NCBI GenBank assembly: GCA_041491005.1
Contig: JBGPUE010000005.1
Location: forward strand, 1,165 to 65,164
DNA: 64,000 bases
Origin: Candidatus Binataceae bacterium
GTDB lineage: Bacteria; Desulfobacterota; Binatia; Binatales; Binataceae
Direction of reading: 5' to 3'
Both the position numbers and the translations under genes were made by a program. Under the pieces are notes generated by a model. That model had not been told where the DNA came from and did not search any database. It saw only the letters and a list, made by a program, of their open reading frames with translations. Of the stretch, positions 33,612 to 53,371 are shown piece after piece (positions within the stretch are counted from its first letter, which is position 1; every line of letters begins with the position of its first letter).

Positions 33612-34373
33612 ATGCCCTTCACTGCCAGATATGGGGCCGCCAAAGCCCTGTTGTGCGCCATCGGTCTGCTCGCATTTGCGGGCTGCTCGAACAGCGCGAA
33701 CAGCAGTGACGACGTGGCGCGTGCGAGCGTCAGCGGTGGGGGAGTCGAGCAATGCGCGGGCATGATGTCGGCCGCAATGACGGTCGAAGAGGATGAATCG
33801 AATTATCGGATCAAACCCGGCGACGACTTGGCGGTCAATTTTTATCTGAACACCGAGTTCAACGATGAGGTGACGGTGCGTCCGGACGGCAAGATCAGCT
33901 TGCGCCTGGTTGGCGAGATCAACGCCCGCGATTTGACGCCGGCGCAGCTCGCGGCAAACATCGACAAGGCCTACGCCGACGAACTTCGCGATCCTGGCGC
34001 GACCGTTCACGTCAAGGGCAGCCCGAGCCGGCGGATCTATGTGCACGGCGAAGTGGTAAAGCCGGGCGCTCTTCCGCTTCAACCCCGGATGACCGCCGTG
34101 CAGGCAGTGGCGGAGTCGGGCGGATTGACGCCTGATGCCGGCGCCGATCGCGCCATCCTGATGCGCCGTGACGCCTGTGGCCAGCCTTACGGGATCCCGT
34201 TCAATCTCGACCACGCCGCACACGAGGGCAGTTCCCACGATGACTTGGTGCTGCTGCCCGGTGACGTGATCGTGGTGCCGCGTTCGAAGGTCGCCGACAT
34301 CGGGTTATTCGTGAAGCACTACTTCAAGGACCTGCTCCCGGTTAACCCCTACATACCGCTGGTGCCTTTCTAG
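33612..34373 (+). CDS. Outer-membrane polysaccharide export lipoprotein (Wza/GumB/EpsE-like; PES domain plus SLBB)
   Basis: It has the lipobox LAFAGC and the YRIKPGDDLAVNFYLNTEFNDEVTVRPDGKISLRLVGEINARDLTPAQL signature of the Poly_export domain. Confidence 0.8.
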   Translation: MPFTARYGAAKALLCAIGLLAFAGCSNSANSSDDVARASVSGGGVEQCAGMMSAAMTVEEDESNYRIKPGDDLAVNFYLNTEFNDEVTVRPDGKISLRLVGEINARDLTPAQLAANIDKAYADELRDPGATVHVKGSPSRRIYVHGEVVKPGALPLQPRMTAVQAVAESGGLTPDAGADRAILMRRDACGQPYGIPFNLDHAAHEGSSHDDLVLLPGDVIVVPRSKVADIGLFVKHYFKDLLPVNPYIPLVPF

Positions 34374-34393
34374 GGCGAGGAAGGGAGCAGCAG

Positions 34394-35908
34394 ATGACGG
34401 TCCAGCAAATATTCGAATCCTGGCTTGAACTGGCCTTCAGGCGGCGCACCACTGTTTCGCGCGTCGCGGTGGCGGTGTTCGGCACGGTGTTCGTGCTGAC
34501 GATGCTGTGGCCGCCGCTGTACCAGTCCAGCAGCAAAATCATGATCCAGATCAATCGCGCCAACCTGTTGGTTTCACCCGGACTGGAGACCGGTGCGGCC
34601 AATCCAGCCAACGTGATTGCCGCTCCGGTCGACGAGCAGGACTTGAACTCCGAAATCGAACTGCTCACCAGCCGTCAGCTCGTCGAGCACGCCCTGGAGG
34701 GCCTGACCGACAGCAAACATCAGAGCTTCATGGGCCGCATGGTTTCGATGATCAAGAGCGTGATCGACCTGCCGGGATCGGTGTACGGCGTGCTGCACAG
34801 CTCGCCGGAGATGACGCCGCGCCAGCAATGGGCCAGCGAGCTGGCTGCACGGTTATCGTCCTCGGTGATCAAGCGTTCGAATGTCATCGAAGTGGACTTC
34901 CGCGCGCACGATCCGCAGTGGGCCGAAACCTTCCTGCGGCGGCTGCTCGATCAGTACATGGAGTTCCACGCGCGGATCTCGCAAGACCCGCAGACCGAGA
35001 GGTTCTTCCAGCAACAGTCAGAGATTTTGCAGGAAAGGCTGCGCCGCTCCGAAGAGAAGCTCAAAGCACTCGAGCTGCAGACCGGCATCACTTCGCTGGC
35101 CGAGCAGAAGCAGGCGCTGGTCACGCAGCTGTCTTCCTTCGAAGCCGAATACCGCAGGAACAAGGCGCTGCTGGCGGCCACCCAGCAGCAGGTTGTCTCG
35201 CTGGGTGTCGAACTGGGCAAGAGCCCTGAGAAGAGCACGCGCGAGTCCAAGGTCGTCCAGAACAACGCTCTGCAACAGCTCAAGCCCCAAGTGATGGCGA
35301 TGGAGGCGGAGCGCGCCGAGCTGCTCAGCCGCTACACGCCGACCAGCGCGCGCATTCGTGAAATCGACGCCAAGCTGGACGCCGCCCGCAAGATCCTCCA
35401 CCGCGAGAATCAGAGCGAGGTTCAAGAGACCAACATCGGCGTCAACCCGATATGGGAACAACTCAGCGGCAAGCTTGCAGAGGCGCGCGTCGCGGTCGCC
35501 TCGATCGGTTCCAACCAGGAAGCGCTTCAACAGCAGATTGAGGAGTATCGCGAACAGCTCAAGGCGCTCGCCACCGATGGCATCGAAGTCGAGCGGCTGC
35601 AGCGCCAGGTCGAAACCGACAAGGAAGCCTACCTGTCATACACCCGCAAGGGCGAAGAAGCGCGCGCGGCCCAGGCCCTGAACCAAAGCAAGATTCTTAA
35701 CGTCACCATCGTCGAAGCGCCGACCCAGCCGTTGCATCCGGTTTCGCCGCGTCTGGAAGTCAACCTTGCGGCGGGGCTCGTATTCGCGATCGCACTGGCG
35801 CTCGGCATCGCATGGTGGGAAGAACGCCGCGACCCGCGCATTTACTCGGAGGCCACCATCGCGGAAGTAACCGGGCTCAAAACCATCGCCGCTCTGCCGC
35901 AATCCTGA
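34394..35908 (+). CDS. Polysaccharide chain-length determinant protein (PCP-2/GumC/ExoP N-terminal type, no kinase domain)
   Basis: It has an N-terminal TM, a long periplasmic coiled-coil region and a C-terminal TM (LAAGLVFAIALALGIAWW), the typical Wzz/Wzc N-domain layout. Confidence 0.75.
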   Translation: MTVQQIFESWLELAFRRRTTVSRVAVAVFGTVFVLTMLWPPLYQSSSKIMIQINRANLLVSPGLETGAANPANVIAAPVDEQDLNSEIELLTSRQLVEHALEGLTDSKHQSFMGRMVSMIKSVIDLPGSVYGVLHSSPEMTPRQQWASELAARLSSSVIKRSNVIEVDFRAHDPQWAETFLRRLLDQYMEFHARISQDPQTERFFQQQSEILQERLRRSEEKLKALELQTGITSLAEQKQALVTQLSSFEAEYRRNKALLAATQQQVVSLGVELGKSPEKSTRESKVVQNNALQQLKPQVMAMEAERAELLSRYTPTSARIREIDAKLDAARKILHRENQSEVQETNIGVNPIWEQLSGKLAEARVAVASIGSNQEALQQQIEEYREQLKALATDGIEVERLQRQVETDKEAYLSYTRKGEEARAAQALNQSKILNVTIVEAPTQPLHPVSPRLEVNLAAGLVFAIALALGIAWWEERRDPRIYSEATIAEVTGLKTIAALPQS

Positions 35909-35923
35909 TGGTGCTGAAAAAAG

Positions 35924-37393
35924 ATGTACTACCAGCACTTCGGACTTAGCGGCCATCCCTTCCTGCTGACGCCTGACCCTGCGCTGCTCTACATGAGCTC
36001 GGCGCATCGTGAGGCGCTGGCGGCGCTGGAATGGGGACTCAGCGAGCCCAGCGGCCTGACGCTGATGGTGGGCGAGGTGGGCACGGGCAAGACCACGCTC
36101 ATCCACTCACTGTTGCTGCGCCATCATGAGGGCGTCCGGCCGGTCGTCATCAGCCAGCCGACGCTCGCCTTCGAGGAGATGCTACGCCTGATTCTCGCCC
36201 AACTGGGCATCAAGCCGGCGGCGGCAGCGACCCGCTTCGAGATGATCCAGGCGCTGAGCAATTCGCTGGCTGCACTGAAATCCAGCGAACGGATCGCATT
36301 GATCATCGATGAATCGCAGGCGCTCAGCGATGCGACGCTGGAGGAGTTGCGCCTGCTCTCCAATCTTTCGATCGGCGACCACGCACCACTTCAGATCGTA
36401 CTGGTCGGCCAGATCGACCTGCTGCGGCGGCTCAATACGCCGACGCTGCGCCAGCTCAACCAGCGCATCGGCGCCCGCGCGCTGCTGCTGTCGCTGAACT
36501 ACTCGGAGGCGTATGGCTATGTCGAGCACCGCCTCCAGCTCAAGGGACGCAGTTCGGACGAAGTGTTTACCCGCGGCGCCTTGCGCCGCATCGTGTACCA
36601 CGGCCGCGGCATTCCGCGGCGCATCAACGTACTCGGCCACAATTCGATGACGCTGGCGTACGCGGCGGGCGCCAGCCGCGTCAGCGCCGCGATGGCGCAG
36701 GCGGCCGCCGCGGAGTACGACGACCTGCTCAAAGCGAACCGGCCGAGCCTGGCCTTGGTCTGGCAGTCGCTGGCGCGCTTCATCCTGCGGCCTGCCGCGT
36801 CCGGCCGCCGCGGCCCCAGGCCGCTTCAGGTCGTGCTTGCGCTGCTGGCGATCGGGGCAATTCTCAGCCCGGTGGTGAGCCGCTGGAACCGAATCGACGC
36901 CACGCTTGCCCATCTGAAGTCTCGCGCCGAGCACGAGCTCGGCTCTTCGATGAACGATACGCGACGCGCGGCGGCGGTCGCTGAGGAGCAGTTGCGCACT
37001 GCAAGCACGAGCCTGGTCTCGGGCGGCGGCGACGAACCGCAACTCACAGCCAATCCGGCCCCGGTTCGCGCTCCAGTTAGCGCGCCGCAGAGCGACCAGC
37101 ACGCCGCGGGCACGGCAGAGCTGTTTGCCCACGTGGCCCAAACGGCCTCGGCTCCCGGCGCTAGCACGGCGCAGCCGGCCGCCGAAGACGGCCAGAGTGC
37201 CGATGAACTAAATGTCGTGGTCCGGCCGGGCGACACCCTGAGCGGCATCGCGCTGACGCATCTTGGGTCAAACCGGACTTCGCTGGTTGCCAAACTCCTT
37301 GAAGCCAACCCGCAGATCAGCAACGCGGACGTGATCCATCCCGGCCAGCGCCTCAATCTGCCGTCCGTCAACCAGCCGTCGGTACGGGAGTAG
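35924..37393 (+). CDS. ExeA/GspA-like AAA ATPase with C-terminal LysM domain (resembles the PEP-CTERM-locus secretion ATPase)
   Basis: It has Walker A GEVGTGKTT in the N-terminal ATPase module (MYYQHFGLSGHPF...) and a C-terminal LysM (VVRPGDTLSGIALTHLGSNRTSLVAKLLEANPQISNADVIHPGQRLNLP). Confidence 0.75.
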   Translation: MYYQHFGLSGHPFLLTPDPALLYMSSAHREALAALEWGLSEPSGLTLMVGEVGTGKTTLIHSLLLRHHEGVRPVVISQPTLAFEEMLRLILAQLGIKPAAAATRFEMIQALSNSLAALKSSERIALIIDESQALSDATLEELRLLSNLSIGDHAPLQIVLVGQIDLLRRLNTPTLRQLNQRIGARALLLSLNYSEAYGYVEHRLQLKGRSSDEVFTRGALRRIVYHGRGIPRRINVLGHNSMTLAYAAGASRVSAAMAQAAAAEYDDLLKANRPSLALVWQSLARFILRPAASGRRGPRPLQVVLALLAIGAILSPVVSRWNRIDATLAHLKSRAEHELGSSMNDTRRAAAVAEEQLRTASTSLVSGGGDEPQLTANPAPVRAPVSAPQSDQHAAGTAELFAHVAQTASAPGASTAQPAAEDGQSADELNVVVRPGDTLSGIALTHLGSNRTSLVAKLLEANPQISNADVIHPGQRLNLPSVNQPSVRE

Positions 37394-37398
37394 AAGCA

Positions 37399-38169
37399 TT
37401 GGCCAAATTTTTCGAAGCGCTGAAACGTTACGAAGCCGAGCAGGCGCTCGAGCACACCCCGGTGCCCGAGACCCGGCCGGTCCGCAATCTAAGCGCCGTC
37501 GAGATGCCGGCGTTGCTGACCCCGGTGCCGGTTGGACCCGCCGTGCCGGGGCATCTCGCGCGTGCCGACGGGATACGCCATCTGACCGAAAAAATAGCGC
37601 CGCTGGCGTGCCTCAACAGCGCCATCCGGCTGGGCATCAGCGGCTGCCGTCCCGGCGACGGGGCGTCGAGCGTCGCCGCAAGTATCGCGATCGATTTGAG
37701 CCAGCGTCTGGCGCTGAGAATCCTGCTGCTCGACGCGCATCTGCGCCACCCGAGCCTGTTCCGGATGTTCTCGATCAGCGACCCGATGATCGCGGAGGCG
37801 ACGCCGAGCACGCGAGTGCTGATTCGACCCACGCGCTGGCCGCGGCTGGATGTGGCGAGCTGTATGCCGCCGGCCGAGCGCGAGCATCAGCAACGGTTTT
37901 TCGAGGATACCGAGCAGCTTATCAACCGCTATCCGATCGTCGTCATCGATCTCGGCGTGCTGCGGCTTGACGCGCGCATGCTGCCGCTGGCGCGCGCCAC
38001 CGATCCGATCCTGCTGATCGTGCGCTACGGCTACACCGAGCGGCGCGAGCTGGCCACCACCGCGACCGCGCTGGCGGCCGCCAATCGACAAATCGGCGGC
38101 GTGGTACTCAACGCCCGGCGCAGACCGGCCCCGGCTTTCGTTGATCGCATTTTCGGCACAGGAGCCTGA
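37399..38169 (+). CDS. BY-kinase/MinD-like P-loop protein with degenerate Walker A (Lys replaced by Ala); putative pseudo-kinase
   Basis: The region GISGCRPGDGASSVAASIAIDL aligns to the BY-kinase Walker A xxSxxPGEGKSTxxxNLA but has GAS in place of GKS. The Walker A'-like VVIDLG and the B-like DPILLIVRYGYT are retained. It has a TTG start and lies immediately after the ATPase gene. Confidence 0.55.
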   Translation: MAKFFEALKRYEAEQALEHTPVPETRPVRNLSAVEMPALLTPVPVGPAVPGHLARADGIRHLTEKIAPLACLNSAIRLGISGCRPGDGASSVAASIAIDLSQRLALRILLLDAHLRHPSLFRMFSISDPMIAEATPSTRVLIRPTRWPRLDVASCMPPAEREHQQRFFEDTEQLINRYPIVVIDLGVLRLDARMLPLARATDPILLIVRYGYTERRELATTATALAAANRQIGGVVLNARRRPAPAFVDRIFGTGA

Positions 38170-38171
38170 TA

Positions 38172-39272
38172 ATGAGTTTACAATCCACTCTTCCCGCCGC
38201 CCGCCCCGCCGCCGGCGACAAGCGCCCGGCAGCCGAACCGCGCCTGCGCGGTATGGCGGTCGTCGGCCTGGGTTATTGGGGACCCAACTGGGTGCGCAAT
38301 CTGTCGCAGACGCGCAGTGCCCGGCGCCTGATCGCTTGCGATCTCTCCGAGGAGCGCCGCGAGCATATCAGCCGGCTTTACCCCAGCGTCGAAGTGACCT
38401 CGAGCTTCGACGACGTCTTGGAGGACTCCGACATCGAGGGCGTCATCGTCGCCACTCCGGTCAAGACGCACTACGAGATGGCGCGCAAATGCCTGCTGGC
38501 TGACAAGTCGGTGCTGGTCGAGAAGCCGCTGGCGACCTCGAGCGCCGAAGCCGCCGCGCTGGTGCACATCGCACGCGAGCGTGGCCGCGCACTGATGGTC
38601 GGACACACCTTCGAGTACAGCGCGCCGGTACTCAAGACTCGCGAGATCATCAATTCGGGCGAGCTTGGCGATGTCTTCTACATCAGTTCGATTCGCGCCA
38701 ACCTCGGCCTGTTCCAGCGCGACATCAACGTGGCGTGGGATCTCGCCACCCATGACATCTCGATCATCCTGATGCTGCTGGGGCGGCTGCCGGAAGCGGT
38801 TAGCTGCCAGGGCCAGAGCCATTACAATCCGGCGGTTGAAGACGTCGCGCTGCTGACCCTGCATTTCTCCCGCAACGTGATGGCCTTCATCCACGTCAGC
38901 TGGCTGGATCCCAACAAGATCCGGCGCACCACCATCGTGGGGTCCAAGAAGATGCTGGTGTACGACGATACCGCTCCGCAGGAAAAGATCCGCGTCTACG
39001 ACAAGGGCGTGGCGGTCAGCCGCTACTACGACACCTTCGGCGACTTTCAGTTCTCCTATCGCTACGGCGACATTTACATTCCCCGCATCGAGGAGTCTGA
39101 GCCGCTTAAGTTGGAGTGCGAACACTTCGTCGATTGCATCAAGACCGGGGCCACGCCGAACACCGACGGGCTCAATGGCCTGCGCGTGGTGAGCGTGCTC
39201 GAAGCGGCCGGCGCCTCGCTGCGCAACGGCGGCGGGCCGGTGCCGATCAACAGCATGGCGAGGATGGACTGA
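38172..39272 (+). CDS. Gfo/Idh/MocA-family NAD-dependent sugar oxidoreductase (WbpB/WlbA-like UDP-sugar 3-dehydrogenase)
   Basis: It has a Rossmann N-terminus GMAVVGLGYWGPNWVRN and an EKP motif (LVEKPLA), consistent with the GFO_IDH_MocA family. Confidence 0.8.
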   Translation: MSLQSTLPAARPAAGDKRPAAEPRLRGMAVVGLGYWGPNWVRNLSQTRSARRLIACDLSEERREHISRLYPSVEVTSSFDDVLEDSDIEGVIVATPVKTHYEMARKCLLADKSVLVEKPLATSSAEAAALVHIARERGRALMVGHTFEYSAPVLKTREIINSGELGDVFYISSIRANLGLFQRDINVAWDLATHDISIILMLLGRLPEAVSCQGQSHYNPAVEDVALLTLHFSRNVMAFIHVSWLDPNKIRRTTIVGSKKMLVYDDTAPQEKIRVYDKGVAVSRYYDTFGDFQFSYRYGDIYIPRIEESEPLKLECEHFVDCIKTGATPNTDGLNGLRVVSVLEAAGASLRNGGGPVPINSMARMD

Positions 39273-39273
39273 G

Positions 39274-39789
39274 ATGGCCAAGCGCGAGCTTCCGCCCAAC
39301 GTCTGCGTCGCCGACGACGTCCGGCTCGGCGAGCGAGTCCGGCTGGCCGCGTTCGTAAATCTATACGGATGCGAAATCGGCGACGATTCGCGCGTCGGCG
39401 CATTCGTCGAGGTACAGCGCGGCGCGCGCATTGGCAGCCGCTGCAAGATTTCGAGCCATACCTTCATCTGCTCGGGCGTCGAAATCGAGGACGAAGTTTT
39501 CATTGGTCACGGCGTGGTCTTCATTAACGATCGCCGCCCGCGCGCTACCCGTCCCGACGGTGCGGCGCAGACCGAGAGCGATTGGGCGATGGAGCGCACC
39601 ATGGTGCGCCGGCGCGCGTCGATCGGCTCGGGCGCGATCGTCATGTGCGGCGTTGAAATCGGTGAAGGAGCGCTCGTCGGCGCGGGTGCGCTCGTCACGC
39701 GCGACGTGCCGCCCTACAGCGTGGTGGTCGGCTCGCCGGCCCGCGTCCGCGAACGACTCAAACTAACCACTAGTCAGGAGCTTCAATGA
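39274..39789 (+). CDS. Hexapeptide-repeat (left-handed beta-helix) N-acetyltransferase (WbpD/WlbB-like)
   Basis: Tandem [LIV]-G-x-x-x-x hexapeptides are present throughout (IGDDSRVGAFVEVQRGARIGSRCKISSHTFI...). Its size of 171 aa fits. Confidence 0.8.
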   Translation: MAKRELPPNVCVADDVRLGERVRLAAFVNLYGCEIGDDSRVGAFVEVQRGARIGSRCKISSHTFICSGVEIEDEVFIGHGVVFINDRRPRATRPDGAAQTESDWAMERTMVRRRASIGSGAIVMCGVEIGEGALVGAGALVTRDVPPYSVVVGSPARVRERLKLTTSQELQ

Positions 39790-40934
39790 TCAAGTTCGTA
39801 GATCTGGCGGCCCAAAACCTGGAAATCCGTGAGCGCGTCGAACGCGAGTTCGCCGCGATCCACGAAAAGACCGCCTATATTGGCGGACCTCAGGTCGCCT
39901 CCTTCGAGCACGAGTTCGCCGACTTTCTCGGCGCGCGCCGGGTGGTGGGCGTGGGTAGCGGCACCGACGCGCTCAGGCTGGTGTTGCTCGCGATGGGCGT
40001 CGGCCCGGGCGATGAAGTGATCACGACGCCGATGACCTTTATCGCGACTGCGGAGGCGATCGTGCAGGTCGGCGCGCTTCCGGTCTTCGCCGACATCGAT
40101 CCGGTGAGCTACAACCTGAGCCCGGCCGCGGTGCAGAAGTATTTGAAGGCGCGCCGCTGGTCCGCCAAAAACGGCCCGCGCGTCCTGATGCCGGTGCATC
40201 TGTACGGCCTGCCCGCGGCGATGGACGCGATGCGCGAGATCGCCGCGGCGCATCATCTACGAATCGTCGAGGATGCATGCCAGGCGCACGGCGCGCGCCT
40301 GCGCACCGCGCAAGGCTGGGTCAAAGCTGGCACCGTCAGTGAGGCCGGATGCTTCAGCTTCTATCCGGGCAAGAACCTGGGCGCCTGGGGCGAAGCCGGC
40401 GCGGTCGCGACCAACGATGAAGACCTCGCCAATCGCGTCGCCGTGCTGCGCGACCACGGTCGCATGTCGCATTACGGGCACCGCGACTATGGCTACAACG
40501 CGCGTCTGGACGCCGTGCAGGCGGCGGTACTGCGCGCCAAGCTCGAACGCTTGGCGGACTGGAACGCGCGCCGGCGCACGATTGCGTCGATGTACCGCGA
40601 GCTGCTCGCGGACAGCGGCGTCGATGTCCCGATCGAGCCTGAGGGCTACGAGTCCTGCTACCACCTGTTCGTGATCCGCACACCCGGGCGCGACGTGATT
40701 CGCGAAGCGCTGACTAGGGCGGGCATCGAAAGCGGAGTGCATTACCCAGTGCCGCTTCATATGCAGCCAGCATGCGCCCAGCTTGGCTATCGGCCGGGCG
40801 ATTTCCCCAACGCTGAACGGCTGGCCGCGACCGCGCTTTCGCTCCCGATGCATCCGCATCTGAGCGATGAGCAGGTCGTCCAAATTGCCGCAGTCGTCCG
40901 CGAGGCCGCCAAAGAGGCGCGCGCCGCGGCTTGA
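39786..40934 (+). CDS. DegT/DnrJ/EryC1/StrS-family PLP-dependent sugar aminotransferase (WbpE/WlbC-like)
   Basis: It has GSGTDALRLVL, an FYPGKNLGAWGEAGAV region with the PLP lysine, and HYPVPLHMQPA. There is a 4-bp overlap with the upstream gene. Confidence 0.85.
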   Translation: MIKFVDLAAQNLEIRERVEREFAAIHEKTAYIGGPQVASFEHEFADFLGARRVVGVGSGTDALRLVLLAMGVGPGDEVITTPMTFIATAEAIVQVGALPVFADIDPVSYNLSPAAVQKYLKARRWSAKNGPRVLMPVHLYGLPAAMDAMREIAAAHHLRIVEDACQAHGARLRTAQGWVKAGTVSEAGCFSFYPGKNLGAWGEAGAVATNDEDLANRVAVLRDHGRMSHYGHRDYGYNARLDAVQAAVLRAKLERLADWNARRRTIASMYRELLADSGVDVPIEPEGYESCYHLFVIRTPGRDVIREALTRAGIESGVHYPVPLHMQPACAQLGYRPGDFPNAERLAATALSLPMHPHLSDEQVVQIAAVVREAAKEARAAA

Positions 40935-45816: not shown

Positions 45817-47027
45817 CCGCAACCAACTCCATGGCAAGCAGGCCGCAGCCTGCAGGCTCCAATCCGGACTGGAGCAACGACGCATTTACGTTCTGGAAGT
45901 TGCCCACCCACTCCCGGGAGGCGCTCGAGCCATCGATCGTGGCCTCGGTGGCGATCGCTGAATGGCACATGTTCGAACGCTATCTGCCCGAGCGCGATCG
46001 CCATCAGCACTCGGTGCTGCGCGCCTACTACCTGCTCAAACGCTTCGTGCCGCTATGGCTGCGGCATGCGGGCAACTCTCTGATGGCTCGTTCGCGCCGC
46101 GTCGATTTTCCGGCTTGGCCACGGGAAACCTCGCTGATGGATTTCTGGACCGAATGGTTGGAGCAGAGCCTGATCGCGATGAAAGTCACCGAAGGCTGGC
46201 ACATCGGGTTCTGGCCCGAGGGCCGCGACTGCTGTATCGCGCTCACCCACGACGTCGAGAGTCCGTCCGGATTCGCCCGCATGGAGCGGATGGCCGAGAT
46301 GGAAGCGCATTACGGTTTCCGTTCGGCTTGGAACCTGCCGCTGGATCAGTACCCGATCGACTGGAAGATCGTCGAGCGTCTGCGTGCGCGTGGGTTCGAA
46401 TTCGGCGCGCATGGGCTCAACCACGACGGGCGCCTGTTCCGCTCGCGCGAGGACTTCCAGGAGCTGGCGCCGCGCGTGGAGCGGCTTGCGCGCGAGCACG
46501 GGTTGCGCGGCTTCCGCTCGCCCTCGACGCTGCGCAACGTCGAGTGGATACCGACGATGGATTTCGACTACGACGGCAGCTTTTCGGACACCGATCCGTA
46601 CGAGCCTCAGCCGGGCGGCACCTGCAGCATCTTCCCGTTCTTCCTGGGCGCGATGGTCGAGCTGCCCTACACGCTGGCGCAGGATCATACCCTGACGACC
46701 CTGCTCCATCGCTGCGCGATCGACGTGTGGCGCGCAAAGGCCGACTGGATCGCTTCGCTGGGCGGGATGATCCTGACGCTGGTGCATCCCGACTACTCAG
46801 GCGCGGGCGCCGGCCTGCGCGAATACGAGGACCTACTCAAGCATCTGAGCCGCATCCGCTCGGCGTGGCGCGCCTTGCCAGGCGAAGTCGCGGCATGGTG
46901 GCGGCGGCGGGCGCTGATGGAACTCAGCATCGAGGCCGGGCGTCCGGTGATAACAGGCCCCGATATCGCCGGAGGTGTCGCCCGGCGATTGGCGAGCGAA
47001 CCGCTGGCTCATCGCAGGTCGACGTAG
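45807..47027 (+). CDS. Polysaccharide deacetylase-like protein (CE4-related, D-V-E variant motif)
   Basis: The segment CIALTHDVESPSGF is followed by GFEFGAHGLNHD, consistent with NodB-homology motifs where DVE replaces DD. The assignment is from motif recall, so moderate. Confidence 0.5.
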   Translation: MALAATNSMASRPQPAGSNPDWSNDAFTFWKLPTHSREALEPSIVASVAIAEWHMFERYLPERDRHQHSVLRAYYLLKRFVPLWLRHAGNSLMARSRRVDFPAWPRETSLMDFWTEWLEQSLIAMKVTEGWHIGFWPEGRDCCIALTHDVESPSGFARMERMAEMEAHYGFRSAWNLPLDQYPIDWKIVERLRARGFEFGAHGLNHDGRLFRSREDFQELAPRVERLAREHGLRGFRSPSTLRNVEWIPTMDFDYDGSFSDTDPYEPQPGGTCSIFPFFLGAMVELPYTLAQDHTLTTLLHRCAIDVWRAKADWIASLGGMILTLVHPDYSGAGAGLREYEDLLKHLSRIRSAWRALPGEVAAWWRRRALMELSIEAGRPVITGPDIAGGVARRLASEPLAHRRST

Positions 47028-47029: not shown

Positions 47030-48199
47030 ATGGCGCGCTTCCTGATTGTCGCCTACACGCACTTCTACCGTGACGGGCGCGTCAAGCGTCACGCCGAAGC
47101 GCTCGCGCGCCGCGGCGACTCGGTCGACGTCATTTGCCTGGCGAGCGAGCTGCGTGGCGAGACGCTTCCAGGCGTCAATGTAATCGGGCTCGGCATCAAG
47201 CGTTACCGTGGCGGCAGCCGCCGCGCCTACATGAGCAGCTACGTGGGATTCTTCGCGAGCGCCGCAGCTCGCGCGACCCTCCTCTCGCTCAAGCATCGCT
47301 ACGATGTCGTGATCGTCTGCACGATGCCCGATGCCGCAGTGATCACCTCGATTGTGCCGCGTCTGATGGGCAGCAAGGTCGTGCTCGACGTGCATGACAC
47401 CATGCCTGAATTGTACCAGGACAAGTTCGGGGGAACGCGTGGCGCCGTCGGTGCGCGGCTGCTGATGTGGGAAGAGCGCGCTAGCGCCCTGCTGGCTCAT
47501 CGCGTGGTGGCAGTTCACGATCTGCACAAGCAGCGCCTCATCGAGGCTGGTATTCCAGCGGACAAGATCCGGGTCGTGATGAACCTGCCCGACGCGCGCA
47601 TCTTCAAACCATCATGCAATGGCGGGCCGCCGATCGAGGGGCCCTTCCAGCTGGTGTGCCACGGCACCATCGCCTACCGATTGGGGATCGATGTCGCGAT
47701 CCAGGCGATGGACCTGCTGCGTGAGCGGATTCCAAACGCCTGTCTCAAGATCATCGGCGATGGTGACTATCTGCCGCAGGCGAAAGAACTGGCGAATCGG
47801 CTGAAGCTGGGTTCGCGCGTTGAGTTCCAGCGTCCGGTGCCGGTGGAGGAGTTGCCCGCGATTCTTAAGGAGGCCTCGCTCGGCTTGGCGCCGAATCGGG
47901 CCAGCAGCGCGACGCATCTGATGTTGCCAGTCAAGGCAATGGAGTACGCCGTACTGGGAATTCCGGTCGTTGCCTCGCGGCTGCGAACGATAGAACATTA
48001 TTTCGGTAGTGCGGTCCGATACTTCACGCCGGGTGATGCGCGTGAACTCGCCGACGCGATCGAGGATCTGTATCGGCATCCCGAGGAACGTTCGCTGCTG
48101 GCTCGCCGCGCGAGCCTGATCGTGAGGGATTACGACTCGCAGGCGCGGCGCGAAGAGCATCTGAAGGCGATCGACCCTTTGATGAACGAGGAGGCATGA
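47030..48199 (+). CDS. Family 4 (GT-B, group 1) glycosyltransferase
   Basis: The N-terminal domain is MARFLIVAYTHFYRDGRVKRHAEALARRGDSVDVI. The C-terminal EX7E-type region is VVASRLRTIEHYFGSAVRYFTPGDARELADAIEDL. Confidence 0.8.
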   Translation: MARFLIVAYTHFYRDGRVKRHAEALARRGDSVDVICLASELRGETLPGVNVIGLGIKRYRGGSRRAYMSSYVGFFASAAARATLLSLKHRYDVVIVCTMPDAAVITSIVPRLMGSKVVLDVHDTMPELYQDKFGGTRGAVGARLLMWEERASALLAHRVVAVHDLHKQRLIEAGIPADKIRVVMNLPDARIFKPSCNGGPPIEGPFQLVCHGTIAYRLGIDVAIQAMDLLRERIPNACLKIIGDGDYLPQAKELANRLKLGSRVEFQRPVPVEELPAILKEASLGLAPNRASSATHLMLPVKAMEYAVLGIPVVASRLRTIEHYFGSAVRYFTPGDARELADAIEDLYRHPEERSLLARRASLIVRDYDSQARREEHLKAIDPLMNEEA

Positions 48200-48963
48200 C
48201 AGTGGAAGAGGGCGTGACTCTGGTGGTCGGATTAGGGGAAGTCGGTGGTGCGCTGGCTGAAATCCTGGAGCGCAAGGGACCAGTCGCACGCCACGATATC
48301 CAGCCGGTCCAGATTCCAGGGCCGATCAACGTGATGCACATCTGCTTCCCATTTAAGGATGTACGCCAATTCGAGAGTCTGTCGCTCTCCTACATCCGCC
48401 GTTTCAATCCCTCGCTGGTGATCATCAACAGCACAGTGACGCCGGGCACGACGCGCGCGATCGCGCGATCCAGCGGCGCCGCGGTCGCGTACTCGCCGGT
48501 ACGCGGCAAGCACGTCAAGATGGTCGAAGATCTTTTGCATTACGATAAATTCGTCGCGGCGCCTGACGCCGAGACGGCGCGGCGCGCTGAAGAGCATCTC
48601 CGGGCGCATGGGCTCAAGACCCGCCACGTCGCGAAGCCCGAGACGCTGGAACTGGCCAAGCTCGCCGAGACTACCTATTTCGGCGTGCTGATCGCCTATG
48701 CGCAGGAGCTCAACCGGTATTGCGAGCAGGTTGGCGCTGACTATTCCGAAGCGATCAAGTTCTTCGAAGAGGTGCAATTCTTCCCGCGCTCGGAGTACTT
48801 TCCGGGCTTCATCGGCGGGCATTGCGTGATGCCCAACATCGAGATCCTGCTCAAGATCCTGCCGGCGCCGTTGCTCAATGCCGTGGTCGATTCCAACCAA
48901 CGGCGTAGCGCGGAGCTCGAGGCCCAGTCACCGCCCAGGAAGGTTTCCAACGCCAAGCCGTGA
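48196..48963 (+). CDS. Short UDP-glucose/GDP-mannose dehydrogenase-family protein (NAD-binding plus central domain only; no C-terminal UDP-binding domain)
   Basis: It has a Rossmann N-terminus LVVGLGEVGGALAEIL, a central-domain helix ETLELAKLAETTYFGVLIAYAQELNRYCEQVGADYSEAIKFFEE and FIGGHCVMPNIEIL (cf. the GGSC catalytic-Cys motif). It ends at 255 aa. Confidence 0.4.
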   Translation: MTVEEGVTLVVGLGEVGGALAEILERKGPVARHDIQPVQIPGPINVMHICFPFKDVRQFESLSLSYIRRFNPSLVIINSTVTPGTTRAIARSSGAAVAYSPVRGKHVKMVEDLLHYDKFVAAPDAETARRAEEHLRAHGLKTRHVAKPETLELAKLAETTYFGVLIAYAQELNRYCEQVGADYSEAIKFFEEVQFFPRSEYFPGFIGGHCVMPNIEILLKILPAPLLNAVVDSNQRRSAELEAQSPPRKVSNAKP

Positions 48964-50360
48964 CCTACCTAACCAAGGGTGACGCCTGGCTGCTGAGCGA
49001 TCGGCGGCAGGGGAGTTCGTCATCCGCCGCATACCAATTCGCCCGGCTACGTGGGCTGGCCACGCATGAAGTCGATCTTGCGGCAGGCGGGGTTCCCTGT
49101 CTTCAAGGGGGACGGCGAACGCTCGTCGCGCTGGGCCTGGAATTGCTGTCGCATCTTCCACCCGCCCATCTGCAGATTCTAAACAGCGCAGTCCGCGACG
49201 GCGCCACGCTTTACCTCCGTGGAGGGCAGCCCGGCCATCGCGTGTCGCTCGAGCCGTTTTGCAAAACGAATCTGGAGCTCGTCGATGGCCGTGGCACACG
49301 GGATTTTCGCCTCGCCGCGCATCGGCTGGTGCCAAGGGCGCTAGCCGAGGAACGCTTCACCGGCGTGGTCGGCCTGATCAGCGCCGCGGCGTCCCCACCG
49401 GAGCTCGAGCCGCTCGCCTTCGTGATCGATCCGGACGGACGCGAGCGCCCGTTCCTGTTCGCCCTCGAGCTGGGCAGCGGCGCCGTGATCGTTGATTTGA
49501 TGCCGAATCGCGCGGCGGGCGATCCCCGGATGCCAATTGAGTGGCGGATGGCCGACTCAGCCTTGCTCGCATACGACCTTGGCGCGCTAATCGCCGTTGA
49601 TCGCGCCGCCGGCCGCGACCAGGCGCATTTGCCACCGATGAATGTGGTTATCGATGATCGCCCGATCAGTTACGACTACGGTAACGCTGGCCGGCTCCGC
49701 CGATGGCTGGAGCACATGAAGCGGATTTGTCCGGCGGTGCATGTCGACTTCGCGTGGATCCCGGATCAACTCCATCCCAGCCGCAGCTATGTCCAAACGC
49801 TGAAAGATTTCGACGCAGGCTTCATCTGGCACGGACTGCGCCGCCATGTGGACCATCGCACGCTCACCGAATTCGATCGCGAGCTCGCGCAAGGCGAAAC
49901 GATGGTGCGCCGGATCAGCAAAAGCTTCGGCGTGAAAATTCAGCGCGTGATGGTGTTCCCGTTCGAGCGGGCCAACTATCGCGCGCTCAAGGCGCTCAAG
50001 GACGGCAGCTTCAAGACATGCCTGGAGAGTTCCGATCCTTGTCCGCGGCTTGAGGGCTGCGCGATGCTGGGTTTCATGCGCGATTCTACGGCGCTCCACG
50101 ATTCATACGCCGGGGTCTTTCCGATGCTGCGACGCTATTCGGGAAAATCGCTGACCCGTCGGTGGATGCTGGCGAAGACGGCGCTGGGCCTGCCGCTAAT
50201 CGTCGCCGGCCATCCGCATGATATCGGTCTGCGCCGGTTGTCGGCGCTGCGCAATGGCGGATCGCCGGGCTACTTCGATTCGACGCTGCAATTCGCGGCG
50301 GAGAAGGGGATGCAGGGGCGGCCGCTCGAGGCTATTGCCGACGAGTACATAAGAGAATGA
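48960..50360 (+). CDS. Hypothetical protein of the EPS locus (466 aa, no signal peptide recognised)
   Basis: The ORF is long and clean, with a 4-bp overlap with the upstream gene. No family was recognised; it may be a deacetylase-like fold (PMNVVIDDRPISYDYGN ... VDFAWIPDQ). This is speculative. Confidence 0.4.
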   Translation: MTYLTKGDAWLLSDRRQGSSSSAAYQFARLRGLATHEVDLAAGGVPCLQGGRRTLVALGLELLSHLPPAHLQILNSAVRDGATLYLRGGQPGHRVSLEPFCKTNLELVDGRGTRDFRLAAHRLVPRALAEERFTGVVGLISAAASPPELEPLAFVIDPDGRERPFLFALELGSGAVIVDLMPNRAAGDPRMPIEWRMADSALLAYDLGALIAVDRAAGRDQAHLPPMNVVIDDRPISYDYGNAGRLRRWLEHMKRICPAVHVDFAWIPDQLHPSRSYVQTLKDFDAGFIWHGLRRHVDHRTLTEFDRELAQGETMVRRISKSFGVKIQRVMVFPFERANYRALKALKDGSFKTCLESSDPCPRLEGCAMLGFMRDSTALHDSYAGVFPMLRRYSGKSLTRRWMLAKTALGLPLIVAGHPHDIGLRRLSALRNGGSPGYFDSTLQFAAEKGMQGRPLEAIADEYIRE

Positions 50361-50408
50361 ACCCGCGCCTCGACTTGGATTCAAGCGCAAAGCGAATGGA
50401 GATCTCCG

Positions 50409-51866
50409 GTGTTCGCTGCTGAAGAGCGCCTCAACCAGCGCAGCCCCACGATGGGCATCATGCCGATCGTGGGGATCGCGGTGGTCATGTTCGCGATGCT
50501 CGTCGCGAGCACCTCGCCGCGTTCGGCGCTGATCATTGTCGTCCCCGTGGGCGCGGCCACGCTCCTGTGGCTGGTACGCTACACGGCCCTTAATCGGCAA
50601 TGGCTGATCACGGCGTTGCTGCTTAACGAAATGCTGTTGTCCAGTGGCCTGCTGCCGATCGCTGAGGATCAGCGCCCGATGCTGCGCTATCCGCTGACTT
50701 TCATGTTCTGCCTGCCCATTCTCATCCCGGTATTGCGATCCGGCGTCCTCCTCAAGGGTGGGTTCAAGTACTATGCGCTTTATCTCGCGTGGTGTTTCGT
50801 GAGCGTCGGCTATTCGCTCCTGCCGGTCTATTCCGCCGGCCGCGCTATCGGATCGACGCTCCTGTTTATGGCATGCGCATCGATGGTCGTGGAGGTTGAG
50901 GATCGCGATAGCGGGCAGCGGCTGATCCGGAACTATTTCATCGGCGGCGCCATCGTGATGGCGCTCACCGCGGCTGTTTTCGTCTGGCTGCCACGCACCA
51001 TGACCTGGTCGCAGCCTCAGCTGTGGGACGATACGCGCTCCTTCCTGTCGCGTTTCCAGGGAATCTTCGGCACCCCCAATCAGATGGGTGAGGCGATGCT
51101 GGCCACGGTTGGCGCTGGATTGGCTTTCTGGCCTTCGGCCAATCGCAACTGGCGCCGCGTAATCGGCGTTACGGTTGCAGCAGCATTCGTCTTCGAAGGA
51201 TTGGCCGACTCACGCTCCTCGTTCCTCGCGATCATGATGGGCATCGTGACCTACCTGGTATGGCGCTACCGGGCGCGCGGCCTGCTTATCTGCATGGGAC
51301 TGGGTGCGATGCTCGCGCTGGCCGCCACCATGATCGATCCGGACTACATCACACGCGGCGACATCGGCACGCTTACCGGCCGCTCGGAGGTCTGGGACTT
51401 TTCCATCCGCAGCATCAAGGATCACCCTATACTCGGCTTCGGCTACGAGGTCGAAGGTCAAATCCTGAAGAGCAAGTACTTCTCCTCTTGGGCGTTGCTG
51501 TGGGACGAGGGACCGCGCTCCTCACTACACAACGGCTATATCGCGCGTATGGTCGGTGTCGGGGTGCCAGCCTTCCTGTTCTGGTGCTGGCTGTTCTTTC
51601 GCTCATGGATCTGGCTATTCAGGCAGCAGGAAGATCCTTGGAACCTCAAGCCGATTGCTTTGCTGATTATGATCCCGCTGGTGATCCTCAACATGAGCGA
51701 GAGCACAGCGATGGATGGGCGCGCCTCGGTCGGCCTGTTGGGCCTGCTGATCTGGTGCCTGATCGAGAAATATCGTGTTGCCGCCACTGAGGCGGAGGCG
51801 ATTCGCCGGATCGCTGAACCGGCCTACAGACCGCCAGTGATCGCGGCGCTTCGCGGCGCTTCCTGA
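50409..51866 (+). CDS. O-antigen ligase/polymerase-family membrane protein (Wzy-like)
   Basis: It has about 10-12 TM helices, a large loop with LADSRSSFLAIMMGI, and a downstream HNGYIARMVGVG, the conserved Arg and His-Asn motifs of the Wzy_C domain. Confidence 0.65.
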   Translation: MFAAEERLNQRSPTMGIMPIVGIAVVMFAMLVASTSPRSALIIVVPVGAATLLWLVRYTALNRQWLITALLLNEMLLSSGLLPIAEDQRPMLRYPLTFMFCLPILIPVLRSGVLLKGGFKYYALYLAWCFVSVGYSLLPVYSAGRAIGSTLLFMACASMVVEVEDRDSGQRLIRNYFIGGAIVMALTAAVFVWLPRTMTWSQPQLWDDTRSFLSRFQGIFGTPNQMGEAMLATVGAGLAFWPSANRNWRRVIGVTVAAAFVFEGLADSRSSFLAIMMGIVTYLVWRYRARGLLICMGLGAMLALAATMIDPDYITRGDIGTLTGRSEVWDFSIRSIKDHPILGFGYEVEGQILKSKYFSSWALLWDEGPRSSLHNGYIARMVGVGVPAFLFWCWLFFRSWIWLFRQQEDPWNLKPIALLIMIPLVILNMSESTAMDGRASVGLLGLLIWCLIEKYRVAATEAEAIRRIAEPAYRPPVIAALRGAS

Positions 51867-51877
51867 CACGACGGACA

Positions 51878-53371
51878 ATGCCGGCCCTCTTTCGTATCGT
51901 TGCCTTCGCATCGCTGGCCGAGCTTGCCGCAGTGGTTATCGCAGGGCGCGGCATCGGAGCGGGAGGGTTCGTCTCAGTCGCTTCCAGAGCCAGCGCCGCG
52001 CAAATTGACGGGCGCAGCATCTTCGTCGATCCGGCCGGAGACGATTCCAACGACGGCGCCAGCCCCGCCCATCCGTGGCGAACGATCGCGAAGGTCAACG
52101 CCGCTGCATTGGGCGCCGGTGACACGATCCGGTTCAAGCGCGGCGGACTGTGGCGCGAGACCCTGGAGCCGCATGGCAGCGGCGCGCCCGGCCGTCCGAT
52201 AACCTTCACCGTCTATGGCAGCGGACGGGCACCAATCATCTCGGGCGCTGACGCGGTCACCGGATGGACCGCATTCAGAGACGGCGCCCGGTTTTCGGCT
52301 GCGCTGGCCAAGCAGCCCAACAACGTCTACCTCGATGATTTGCTCGATTGGGGGCTCGGCCCAGCCGCTTCGCCGGACGCGATGCAACCCGGAAGCTGGT
52401 GCTGGCAGGCGGGCACTCTTTATGCGCGGCTCGCCGACGGGTCCAATCCCGCAGCGCATTTGATCGAAGCCGCCGTGCGCCCGTACGGCACACATACGGT
52501 CGACAAGAGCTACATCGTATTCGATGGGCTGTGGGTGCGGCGTACCGCCGGATGGGGAGTCTTCTTCTATTCGGACACCTCGCCCGAACAGAGCACCGAC
52601 ATCGTGATTCGCAATTGCATCGTCACCCAGACCGGTACCGGGACGCTCGATGACGGGCGCTACTACAACGCGATTCACGTTTCGCGCGCCGCGGCGCCCC
52701 GCTACGAGAACAACACGATCTCGTACTCGGGCGGGCATGGCAACGCGATCAATTCGCAACTCGCTGACGGCGCGGTGATCGCCGGCAATCGCGCCGACCA
52801 CTTCAACCATCACGGCTTCGATGTCAAGAATTCGCAGTCGGTGCTGGTGCGCGGCAACATCGCGCACGATTCGAATGAGGCCAACGGCATCTACTGCGAA
52901 CACACGCGCGCGATGCGGGTCGAAAACAACATCGTCTACAACCTCACCGCGTCGGCCAGCGGCCGCGGCTCGGGCGTGCAGATAGATGACGGCTCCTCTG
53001 ATGCGCGCATCTTCAACAACTCCGTTTTCAACGTATTGACCGGGATCTACCTGACCGTGGCCGGCACGGTGGCGATGAACAACGCGATCAGCCAGGCCCG
53101 CTACGCGCTCAGAACCAGCGCAGGCGGCATCTTCGACTACAACGATTGGGGCGCGGGAGCGCGCATCTACTTCAACGGCACTGAATACAATCTCGGCCAG
53201 TGGCGCGCCCTCGCCGGTCACGATCACGACATCGGAGCCGATCCGATGTGGGCCGGGCCACAAACCGGCGATTTCCGGCTGCTGCCGGGCTCCCCCTGTA
53301 TCGGAGCAGCTACCAACACCGGCACCCCGTTCAAGAGCGGTTCGCATGATCTGGGCGCGAAATCGCCCTAG
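51878..53371 (+). CDS. Secreted right-handed parallel beta-helix repeat protein (pectin-lyase fold; possible polysaccharide lyase/hydrolase)
   Basis: It has an N-terminal hydrophobic segment and repeated NxxIxxN / HGxxxNS-type coils (IRNCIVTQTG, NNTISYSGGHGNAINS, GNIAHDSNEANGIYCE, NNIVYNL, NNSVFNV). Confidence 0.7.
   Translation: MPALFRIVAFASLAELAAVVIAGRGIGAGGFVSVASRASAAQIDGRSIFVDPAGDDSNDGASPAHPWRTIAKVNAAALGAGDTIRFKRGGLWRETLEPHGSGAPGRPITFTVYGSGRAPIISGADAVTGWTAFRDGARFSAALAKQPNNVYLDDLLDWGLGPAASPDAMQPGSWCWQAGTLYARLADGSNPAAHLIEAAVRPYGTHTVDKSYIVFDGLWVRRTAGWGVFFYSDTSPEQSTDIVIRNCIVTQTGTGTLDDGRYYNAIHVSRAAAPRYENNTISYSGGHGNAINSQLADGAVIAGNRADHFNHHGFDVKNSQSVLVRGNIAHDSNEANGIYCEHTRAMRVENNIVYNLTASASGRGSGVQIDDGSSDARIFNNSVFNVLTGIYLTVAGTVAMNNAISQARYALRTSAGGIFDYNDWGAGARIYFNGTEYNLGQWRALAGHDHDIGADPMWAGPQTGDFRLLPGSPCIGAATNTGTPFKSGSHDLGAKSP

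Follow-up and report, generated by a model that had tools for sequence, protein, structure and literature searches.

A Wzx/Wzy-type polysaccharide locus of Candidatus Binataceae with XrtA-like export genes and no exosortase found in its neighbourhood

Does a polysaccharide locus headed by genes resembling those that accompany the exosortase XrtA belong to a protein-sorting system whose other parts lie elsewhere in the genome, or may it represent an exosortase-independent relative of such systems? This question is raised by a 64,000-nt stretch of DNA, hereafter the window, from Candidatus Binataceae bacterium (Bacteria; Desulfobacterota; Binatia; Binatales; Binataceae; GenBank assembly GCA_041491005.1, contig JBGPUE010000005.1, positions 1,165 to 65,164 of the forward strand). 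An initial annotation, made from the letters of the window, had described there an exopolysaccharide (EPS) locus with an XrtA-like front end and had left both alternatives standing. In the present analysis, profile searches, structure prediction and comparison with related loci indicate that the locus is probably a Wzx/Wzy operon that makes and exports a surface heteropolysaccharide, with an export front end that is a sister of the XrtA module, and that it probably works without an exosortase in or next to the locus.

The locus and its export genes

The locus is a real, operon-like unit. The interval proposed for it, 33612-53371, coincides exactly with the bounds of a run of co-directional open reading frames (ORFs) on the plus strand, which comprises 17 genes (G1-G17); the number of 20 given earlier was too high, and the list that accompanied it also sums to 17. 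From G1 to G17 the intergenic gaps are 20, 15, 5, 2, 1, -4, 13, 29, 2, -4, -10, 2, -4, -4, 48 and 11 nt, and it is this narrow span (-10 to +48 nt) on which the operon-like reading is based. A gap of 550 nt lies upstream of G1 and one of 196 nt between G17 and the next gene, and the third-position GC content of the locus ORFs, as selected by the gene-picking script, is 0.73-0.84. The functions originally assigned, in their order, are each supported by a Pfam, NCBIfam or PDB match. The genes are listed below, with scores in bits and model cut-offs in brackets.

G1, 33612-34373 (+): short outer-membrane polysaccharide export (OPX) lipoprotein, 253 aa; Pfam Poly_export PF02563 71.5 (cut-off 28), SLBB 38.9.
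G2, 34394-35908 (+): polysaccharide co-polymerase (PCP), or chain-length determinant, 504 aa; TIGR03007, GNVR.
G3, 35924-37393 (+): ExeA/GspA-like AAA+ ATPase (residues 1-265) with a transmembrane (TM) helix at 301-319, a low-complexity linker and LysM at 432-480; TIGR03015, AAA_22, LysM.
G4, 37399-38169 (+): stand-alone pseudokinase resembling the bacterial tyrosine kinases (BY-kinases), 256 aa; weak TIGR01007 and TIGR03018 matches.
G5, 38172-39272 (+): Gfo/Idh/MocA nucleotide-sugar 3-dehydrogenase (WbpB/UDP-GlcNAc 3-dehydrogenase-like); NF040723 168.8 (cut-off 450), Pfam GFO_IDH_MocA.
G6, 39274-39789 (+): hexapeptide-repeat N-acetyltransferase (WlbB/WbpD-like); PDB 3mqg, E 5e-24, Pfam Hexapep.
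G7, 39786-40934 (+): DegT-family sugar 3-aminotransferase (WbpE/QdtB-like); PF01041 366.7, PDB WbpE 3nu7 E 1e-75, QdtB E 1e-80.
G8, 40948-42384 (+; longest ORF starts at 40867): polyprenyl-phosphate glycosylphosphotransferase, the priming enzyme; TIGR03025 361.1 (cut-off 295.55), Bac_transf 210.
G9, 42414-43895 (+; longest ORF starts at 42240): Wzx-type MOP flippase; Polysacc_synt_3 205, NF007773 181.8 (cut-off 273), 10 predicted TM helices.
G10, 43898-44962 (+): FemAB-like/Acetyltransf_6 accessory protein; TIGR03019 pepcterm_femAB 61.7 (cut-off 260.35), PF13480 53.
G11, 44959-45816 (+): GT2 glycosyltransferase; PF00535 43.
G12, 45807-47027 (+): divergent CE4-type (DVE...HGxxH) deacetylase-like protein, 406 aa; PDB 3rxz, E 1.9e-7.
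G13, 47030-48199 (+): GT4 glycosyltransferase; Glyco_trans_1_4 71, Glyco_transf_4 55.
G14, 48196-48963 (+): truncated UDP-sugar dehydrogenase-family protein, 255 aa; TIGR03026 83.7 (cut-off 189.8), PF00984 45.
G15, 48960-50360 (+): two-domain NDST1/Agd3-like putative metal-dependent polysaccharide N-deacetylase, 466 aa, no signal peptide; fold match of an AlphaFold2 model.
G16, 50409-51866 (+): Wzy-type polymerase (Wzy_C/O-antigen-ligase superfamily) with at least 9 TM helices; PF04932 59 (cut-off 31.7).
G17, 51878-53371 (+): secreted right-handed beta-helix protein; PF13229 51, NosD 28, N-terminal hydrophobic signal.

The window proteins occur in soil metagenomes (JGI 3300053057), and at least six further independent loci share the gene order: L004 (289-kb contig), L006/L176 (764-kb contig), L008 (3.85-Mb contig), L094 (1.97-Mb contig), L096 (metagenome contig) and L177 (GCA_037025185.1). 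This order runs OPX, PCP, ATPase-LysM, kinase-like protein of about 250 aa, Gfo, hexapeptide protein, DegT, priming transferase and Wzx, followed by an optional FemAB-like gene, an optional GT2 gene, an optional 405-aa G12 homologue, GT4, short UDP-sugar dehydrogenase, an optional G15 homologue and Wzy. Among the matches listed, the homologues of G3 and G15 with a named source belong to Candidatus Binataceae, except for one G3 homologue labelled Verrucomicrobiae (P0063). In the literature, we found no paper that links Binatia/Binatota to exosortases or describes this locus.

Judged by sequence comparison, G1-G4 constitute a lineage-specific sister of the export module of XrtA/exosortase loci. 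The resemblance to the XrtA marker set that had been proposed is thus real in kind, in that XrtA-system models are the top NCBIfam matches for G1, G2, G3 and G10, but it does not amount to membership, all of these scores being far below the cut-offs. G1 reaches 121.1 of the 180 bits required for TIGR03027 pepcterm_export, with EpsY second at 96 bits; G2 scores 128.8 against 278.85 on TIGR03007 pepcterm_ChnLen and also matches GNVR (28.2 against 27.7), TIGR01005 and EpsF; and G3 scores 204 against 324.5 on TIGR03015 pepcterm_ATPase, together with 79 bits on AAA_22 and 37 bits on LysM. The kinase and the transferase match generic models better than XrtA ones: G4 obtains 43 against 108 on the generic kinase model TIGR01007, 36.8 against 230.65 on TIGR03018 and about 19-20 bits on Wzc models, and G8, which had been called EpsB-like, passes TIGR03025 only and falls short of EpsB_2 (TIGR03013, 150.2 against 393.35). 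None of the cut-offs of TIGR03027, TIGR03007, TIGR03015, TIGR03018, TIGR03019, TIGR03006 and TIGR03013 was reached, and no exosortase was found in or next to the locus. A check against the PEP-CTERM-locus models, as had been recommended, therefore gave a divided outcome: all proteins stay below cut-off (G1, G2, G3 and G10 at about 25-65% of it), yet they do not fall to the group-1 Wza-Wzb-Wzc families.

Two reference loci help to place these scores. The Undibacterium locus L075, which has a bona fide XrtA (exosortase A, 355 against 208 bits) and was used as positive control, passes all of the models concerned, with 237.7 for TIGR03027, 580.3 for TIGR03007, 417.6 for TIGR03015, 464.8 for TIGR03006 and 538.7 for TIGR03019. 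The acidobacterial locus L063, which adjoins a different exosortase, scores 151, 232 and 280.7 for its OPX, PCP and ATPase, values below the XrtA cut-offs and above those of the window proteins, so that the latter are the most distant of three grades. Since L063 is linked to an exosortase and still sub-threshold, scores below the cut-off are by themselves no proof of exosortase independence.

In comparison with the XrtA EPS loci of the Methylobacillus eps/methanolan and zooglan type, the window locus shares a short OPX, a PCP without kinase, an ExeA-like P-loop ATPase and a separate protein of the BY-kinase family heading a Wzx/Wzy-type locus, and it also contains a FemAB-like protein and a relative of the DVE-type deacetylases. 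It differs in that its ATPase has an additional TM helix and LysM, its kinase lacks the Walker A lysine and the tyrosine tail, its deacetylase G12 (406 aa) is only remotely related, and no exosortase, EpsI, PEP-CTERM, PrsKRT or TIGR03097 ligase was found at the locus. An exosortase-less relative is unsurprising in principle, because the accessory families, unlike EpsH, were already reported to have strong homologues in PEP-CTERM-negative genomes (Haft 2006).

The exporter G1 has a signal peptide ending in a lipobox (...LLAFAGC); its Pfam domains stop at residue 222 of 253, and neither a further domain nor the outer-membrane helix Wza_C follows. With Poly_export and SLBB as its domains, the sequence of G1 agrees with the definition of Class-3 OPX proteins (Saidi et al. 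2022; PMC9603273), which require a separate beta-barrel porin (PMC9603273, PMC12819527). G2 is predicted to span the membrane at residues 24-42 and 456-474, with a long coiled-coil periplasmic domain in between and no fused kinase. The Class-3 pathways of Myxococcus xanthus (WzaX/S/B, WzpX/S/B porins and WzcX/S/B; PMC9603273, PMC12819527) are similar in having a short Poly_export-SLBB lipoprotein without pore helix (Class-3 median 256 aa, against 253 aa for G1) that acts with a PCP in a Wzx/Wzy pathway. Unlike in Myxococcus, no gene for an 18-stranded beta-barrel porin was found adjoining G1, where no dedicated beta-barrel search was made, and the window has an ExeA-like ATPase and a pseudokinase, which are not part of the myxobacterial pathways.

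The ATPase G3 has intact Walker A (GEVGTGKT) and Walker B (LIIDESQ) motifs. Its TM and LysM extension is confined to the window clade among about 170 related loci (GTDB and context loci), and nearly all of the 120 best database matches to G3 have it too; the exosortase-linked ATPases are mostly 300-360 aa long, with four longer ORF calls (435-654 aa), and none of them has LysM. In a neighbour-joining tree of ATPase-domain distances, which is a rough tree without support values, the LysM clade and one Thermoanaerobaculia sequence stand apart from both exosortase-linked clades. The architecture of G3 recalls ExeA/GspA of type II secretion (Aeromonas ExeAB), where ExeA binds peptidoglycan and assists secretin assembly (PMC4098917): in both, a cytoplasmic P-loop ATPase at the N-terminus is followed by a single TM helix and, in the periplasm, by a domain that binds peptidoglycan, and the role proposed for G3 is likewise to help an outer-membrane multimer assemble through the cell wall. 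The differences are that the binding module of G3 is LysM instead of the ExeA-type domain and that its gene is embedded in a polysaccharide locus; library scans of the window proteins detected no GspB/ExeB partner, secretin or pilus gene. By analogy with ExeA, the most likely role of G3 is to fix the co-polymerase/OPX complex to peptidoglycan or to aid the assembly of the complex through this layer. Separately, a LysM-ATPase homologue (P0038) was observed in L095 (9130-13366), where a split PCP gene and two transposases adjoin it and sugar genes are missing downstream, an arrangement that looks like a decayed copy of the locus.

G4 had been listed as a BY-kinase homologue, which is correct as to homology and not as to a working kinase, the family being a conserved degenerate form. 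In its Walker A motif (GCRPGDGASS) the lysine is replaced by alanine; G4 retains Walker A' (DAHLR), has a reduced Walker B (VVIDLG) and carries no tyrosine in its last 25 residues, so that there is no C-terminal tyrosine cluster. The same features, GC(R)PGDGAS[ST] with A' kept and no tyrosine cluster, are found in all syntenic homologues, whereas neighbouring real kinases have GxGK[ST]. The family is small, with 32 members at E <= 1e-30 among 1.84 billion representatives before a sharp drop to ordinary kinases, and the Walker A lysine is absent in every member with a readable motif. No phosphatase gene (Wzb) was seen among the NCBIfam matches of the locus and flank proteins. We infer from these motifs that G4 is a kinase-dead scaffold, with which no tyrosine-phosphorylation cycle would be possible. 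Outside the G4 clade, other lysine-less BY-kinase-like proteins were noticed (P0269, P0275, P0303, P0304, P0312, P0317 and P0325, with motifs such as GEGVST, GDGSST and GEGAST), some of them fused to PCP domains; kinase-dead relatives of BY-kinases may therefore be commoner than this locus alone.

Exosortases, PEP-CTERM cargo and competing readings

That no exosortase or PEP-CTERM protein is encoded in the 64 kb was borne out by an NCBIfam flank scan, an exosortase hidden Markov model (HMM) and a C-terminal-tail scan. The NCBIfam scan of the locus and flank proteins gave no exosortase (TIGR02602/TIGR03109), EpsI, PrsK/PrsR/PrsT, TIGR03097 or TIGR03016-type match. The exosortase HMM, which was built from 12 exosortases in the fetched loci (two of them NCBIfam-verified) and run on all ORFs of at least 70 aa in six frames, matched in 14 of 80 GTDB loci and 8 of 80 metagenome loci; it had no match in any frame of the window or in the syntenic loci. 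The tail scan recovered genuine PEP-CTERM tails (VPEP...RRRK) in the control loci L026 and L079, but none in the window and none in the Binataceae-type loci fetched.

The possibility had also been raised that exosortase and PEP-CTERM genes lie immediately outside the window, which would make this a standard XrtA locus. Metagenome contigs identical to the window add about 6 kb on the upstream side and about 7 kb on the downstream side, and according to their Pfam gene tables neither extension contains an exosortase, so that about 77 kb are covered in all. The six further syntenic loci also have no exosortase within their 10-kb flanks; in canonical loci the exosortase is found 4-9 kb downstream of the ATPase, a stretch that the syntenic loci cover completely. 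None of the seven window-type loci is accompanied by an exosortase within 10 kb, compared with 20 of 44 other loci with an OPX and a G3-like ATPase (Fisher p = 0.034, a weak test with uneven flank lengths). Because no exosortase was found in the window, its extensions or the six syntenic loci, and because the ATPase clade is phylogenetically separate, the exosortase-independent relative is favoured among the two alternatives that had originally been considered.

A competing explanation, which we regard as unlikely, is that this is an ordinary exosortase-dependent (XrtA-like) EPS locus whose exosortase, EpsI and PEP-CTERM cargo are located elsewhere in the genome, the polymer still serving as matrix or glycosylation partner for sorted proteins. 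It would account for the XrtA-system models being best for G1, G2, G3 and G10, and L063, with its exosortase next door, illustrates that divergence alone does not exclude linkage; furthermore, only about half of the other OPX-ATPase loci have an exosortase within 10 kb, and PEP-CTERM genes are known to be scattered, although EpsH is nearly always located among EPS genes (Haft 2006). It is opposed by the negative searches in about 77 kb and in six syntenic loci, by the lack of PEP-CTERM tails in the Binataceae-type sequences fetched, by the missing PrsK/PrsR/PrsT, EpsI, TIGR03097 and TIGR03016-type matches, and by an ATPase that belongs to a separate clade and has a different architecture.

It is less probable still that the locus follows the Wza-Wzb-Wzc scheme as a generic capsule (group-1-like) or O-antigen-type locus and that its likeness to XrtA loci reflects background homology among OPX and PCP proteins. 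Generic models do match, as TIGR01007 is best for G4, TIGR03025 is the only transferase model passed by G8, and G2 also matches TIGR01005 and EpsF, and the presence of strong homologues of the accessory families in PEP-CTERM-negative genomes (Haft 2006) agrees with this explanation as well. The window, however, departs from group-1 loci: there is no full-length Wza with a pore helix (G1 scores 47.8 against 333 on the Wza-type model), no Wzc with a fused active kinase, the kinase being separate and dead, and no Wzb phosphatase was found. An ExeA-like ATPase stands between PCP and kinase, an arrangement shared with XrtA loci but not with group-1 loci, and XrtA models outrank the generic ones for G1, G2, G3 and G10. 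Finally, a pilus or type II secretion assembly function of G3 (MshM/GspA-like), fortuitously beside a polysaccharide locus, is very improbable: JGI annotations name G3 homologues ExeA, GspA or MshM and many related ATPases in GTDB loci have no OPX or PCP neighbour, but G3 follows G2 by 15 nt and precedes G4 by 5 nt, holds the identical position in all seven syntenic loci, and has no secretin, GspB or pilus gene beside it in the window.

Polymer synthesis and the proposed pathway

A priming transferase, Wzx, Wzy, PCP and OPX are encoded together, as expected of a Wzx/Wzy-dependent pathway. By homology, G5, G7 and G6 are shown to resemble a dehydrogenase, aminotransferase and N-acetyltransferase trio that would make a precursor of the UDP-2,3-diacetamido-2,3-dideoxy-hexose type; the best structural match of G6 (3mqg) is a WlbB-type acetyltransferase of lipopolysaccharide biosynthesis. 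The three proteins are similar to WbpB, WbpE and WbpD/WlbB of the Pseudomonas/Bordetella Wbp/Wlb pathway, which leads to UDP-2,3-diacetamido-2,3-dideoxy-uronic acids. Unlike that pathway, the locus has no full-length WbpA 6-dehydrogenase, only the 255-aa G14, and no WbpI 2-epimerase. Since G5 is nearest to UDP-GlcNAc 3-dehydrogenase, the sugar of this locus may not be a uronic acid.

Further genes may be involved in modification of the repeat unit. G12, which had been termed a DVE-type deacetylase, can be retained as such at the superfamily level, as a remote CE4 relative, and not as a member of TIGR03006 (cut-off 276.2), since it has no Pfam or NCBIfam match, that model included. When the profile of G12 homologues was aligned with the TIGR03006-type deacetylases of XrtA loci (DVEDYF...HGYGH), hhalign gave a probability of 93% and an E-value of 2.7e-7 across the HGxxH region; G12 is conserved in L004, L006 and L177. 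G14, which is conserved in L008, L094, L176 and L177, contains NAD-binding and central domains and a GGHC motif whose cysteine, by analogy with the UGDH family, is the putative catalytic residue, but its C-terminal UDP-binding domain is missing, and PDB matches reach only about residue 320 of enzymes of 420 aa. The genes of G14 and G15 overlap by 4 nt.

G15, a 466-aa protein formerly described as hypothetical, has no Pfam, NCBIfam or PDB match at the sequence level, and its family comprises 74 members among 5.8 billion proteins, all of which are named 'hypothetical'. An AlphaFold2 model based on 58 sequences has a predicted local distance difference test score (pLDDT) of 91 and a predicted TM-score (pTM) of 0.92. 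The best fold match in PDB is human NDST1, the heparan-sulfate N-deacetylase/N-sulfotransferase 1 (9f6z_B, E 4.6e-13, TMq 0.60), followed at lower ranks by a Mycobacterium smegmatis polysaccharide deacetylase (3rxz), acetylxylan esterase and ThuA/GATase1-like domains. NDST1 consists of a Rossmann-like N-domain and a (beta/alpha)7 deacetylase domain with D319/D320 and H389/H393 as base and metal ligands, and fungal Agd3 is its homologue (PMC10864358). The G15 model superposes on the N-terminal and deacetylase domains of NDST1, and an Asp-Asp and His...His set is kept in its invariant residues D232, D233, H291, H296 and H299. In contrast to NDST1/Agd3 (CE18), it has no sulfotransferase domain and no signal peptide, shows only about 12% identity and has a histidine spacing of HxxxxH versus HxxxH. 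At the level of the modelled fold and motifs, which agree with a Rossmann-like N-domain plus a (beta/alpha)7 barrel bearing an Asp-His-His metal triad, G15 is thus a putative NDST/Agd3-like N-deacetylase, presumably cytoplasmic in view of the missing signal peptide. A metagenomic protein of 719 aa (P0187) is a fusion of a G14-like part (61% identity) and a G15-like part (37%), which suggests that G14 and G15 could form a functional pair. The idea that G15 supplies the missing UDP-binding domain of G14 was considered and set aside when the fold search pointed to an NDST/Agd3-type deacetylase with a GATase1/ThuA-like N-domain; it is a loose possibility derived from the lone G14-G15 fusion.

Based on these assignments, the following pathway can be proposed. 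By homology, G8 would prime undecaprenyl phosphate, G11 and G13 would extend the repeat unit, G9 would flip it and G16, which has no match to the XrtA-linked ligase model TIGR03097, would polymerise it. The co-polymerase G2 and the Class-3 OPX G1 would then carry the polymer across the periplasm, also by homology, and a porin from another part of the genome would have to provide the outer-membrane pore. The cytoplasmic CE4-like G12 and the NDST1/Agd3-like G15 may remove N-acetyl groups from the lipid-linked unit, G15 perhaps together with the truncated dehydrogenase G14, and FemAB-like G10, where it is present (in the window, L004, L096 and L177, being absent from L006, L008 and L094), possibly re-acylates the freed amine. 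G4 would act as a non-catalytic partner of G2, and G17, a candidate polysaccharide-modifying or -degrading enzyme, may trim or modify the secreted polymer outside the cell.

Several points weigh against this account of an exosortase-independent Wzx/Wzy operon, besides the limits of the Fisher test and of the distance tree given above. The roles proposed for G3, G4, G10, G12, G14 and G15 derive solely from fold or motifs, Wzy_C alone cannot separate a polymerase from a ligase, and the P0187 fusion is a single example that may be an assembly or frameshift artefact. There is no porin-like family among the locus and flank matches, none is conserved beside the syntenic loci, and these loci share no conserved neighbour without annotation, as far as can be judged without a dedicated beta-barrel search, which leaves the last export step unexplained. 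Moreover, an exosortase and PEP-CTERM proteins may be present elsewhere in the genome.

A more speculative extension, to which we attach rather little confidence, is that G1-G4 might represent a fourth style of Wzx/Wzy export control, in which the peptidoglycan-anchored AAA+ protein G3 would replace the BY-kinase cycle and gate or drive the assembly of the co-polymerase/Class-3 OPX conduit, with G4 as a nucleotide-dead scaffold and independently of an exosortase. If so, the 'ATPase + kinase' module of XrtA loci and G1-G4 would have branched from one older export machine that did not depend on an exosortase.

With regard to genome annotation, the accessory set that is treated by annotation pipelines as an XrtA/PEP-CTERM marker appears to have a conserved sister lineage in which neither the locus nor the sampled flanks contain an exosortase, and these accessory genes alone are poor ground for inferring exosortase systems. 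An export module working independently of protein sorting, including the still-uncharacterised ATPase, is suggested. The presence of LysM on the ATPase suggests that ATPases of the XrtA-type family have an ExeA-like mode of action, through anchoring or assembly at the cell wall, and the conserved kinase-dead partner may show, as a natural experiment, whether PCP/OPX export can dispense with tyrosine phosphorylation. For G15 a plausible role, that of a bacterial NDST1/Agd3-like N-deacetylase, is now available. The practical impact is modest, considering that the host has not been cultured and that pathways of this overall type are well known; the most notable points are the pairing of LysM-ATPase and pseudokinase and the NDST-like deacetylase.

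Flanking DNA and a candidate regulator

At gathering thresholds, an Rfam scan of the whole window returned no RNA family and no riboswitch upstream of the operon. Scans for sigma-70 promoters and terminators in the 550-nt upstream gap and at the 3' end gave nothing above shuffled expectation. A search for the sigma-54 -24/-12 consensus yielded 0 matches in the window, so that control of the RpoN/PrsR type, as seen in XrtA systems, is not indicated. A small gene downstream of the locus is a possible dedicated regulator, because L008, L094 and L177 each have an orthologue of it flanking the locus.

Window, 57218-57454 (-): small excisionase-family helix-turn-helix protein (HTH_17), 78 aa; TIGR01764 49 bits, Pfam HTH_17.
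L008, 6363-6608: HTH_17 orthologue.
L094, 5875-6093: HTH_17 orthologue.
L177, 13709-13945: HTH_17 orthologue.

This protein, 72-81 aa in length, accompanies four of the seven loci at varying positions and in varying orientations, and its alignment contains the conserved motif EFYTVxQLAxLLQxTxMTxYRMV...CHxIGRxxRFRR.

Directly downstream of the operon and co-directional with it, a gene at 53568-57056 (+) encodes a secreted protein of 1162 aa with an N-terminal DMFA2_C domain (369 bits), followed by long Thr/Ala/Pro-rich linkers and two copies of a domain of about 200 aa without annotation (GxxTLRxxGTGSTS...AAYSGV). In a second metagenome sample, the contig with the same HTH, protease and glyoxalase genes begins with an ORF of 206 aa (region L090 1-1400) where the window has the 1162-aa gene, which is probably due to an assembly break in this repeat-rich gene.

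The remaining flanks of the window carry ordinary metabolic and transport genes, including MBOAT, MFS, CHAD/Ppx, a peptide ABC transporter, MtnA, SDR, crotonases, a molybdenum hydroxylase, acyl-CoA dehydrogenase, site-2 protease and glyoxalases. The upstream extension contains an RND pump, MerR, a 757-aa protein without assigned family and collagen-like proteins, and the downstream extension (L089, 11000-20933, equivalent to about 64000-71000) is a mobile-element-like block with TrwB-like ATPases (related to type IV secretion coupling proteins), a Replic_Relax relaxase, HicAB, a ribbon-helix-helix (RHH) protein and ParA. At 2668-5290 (+), 28 kb from the locus, a DltB/AlgI-like MBOAT gene (160 bits) is followed by one for a 400-aa protein without Pfam match, and the two may form a polysaccharide O-acylation pair. 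ORFs with PVRKVLPEQ-like repeats (window 982-1800 (-); L092 6092-6826) were observed beside a protein with Pfam Collagen repeats just upstream of the window.

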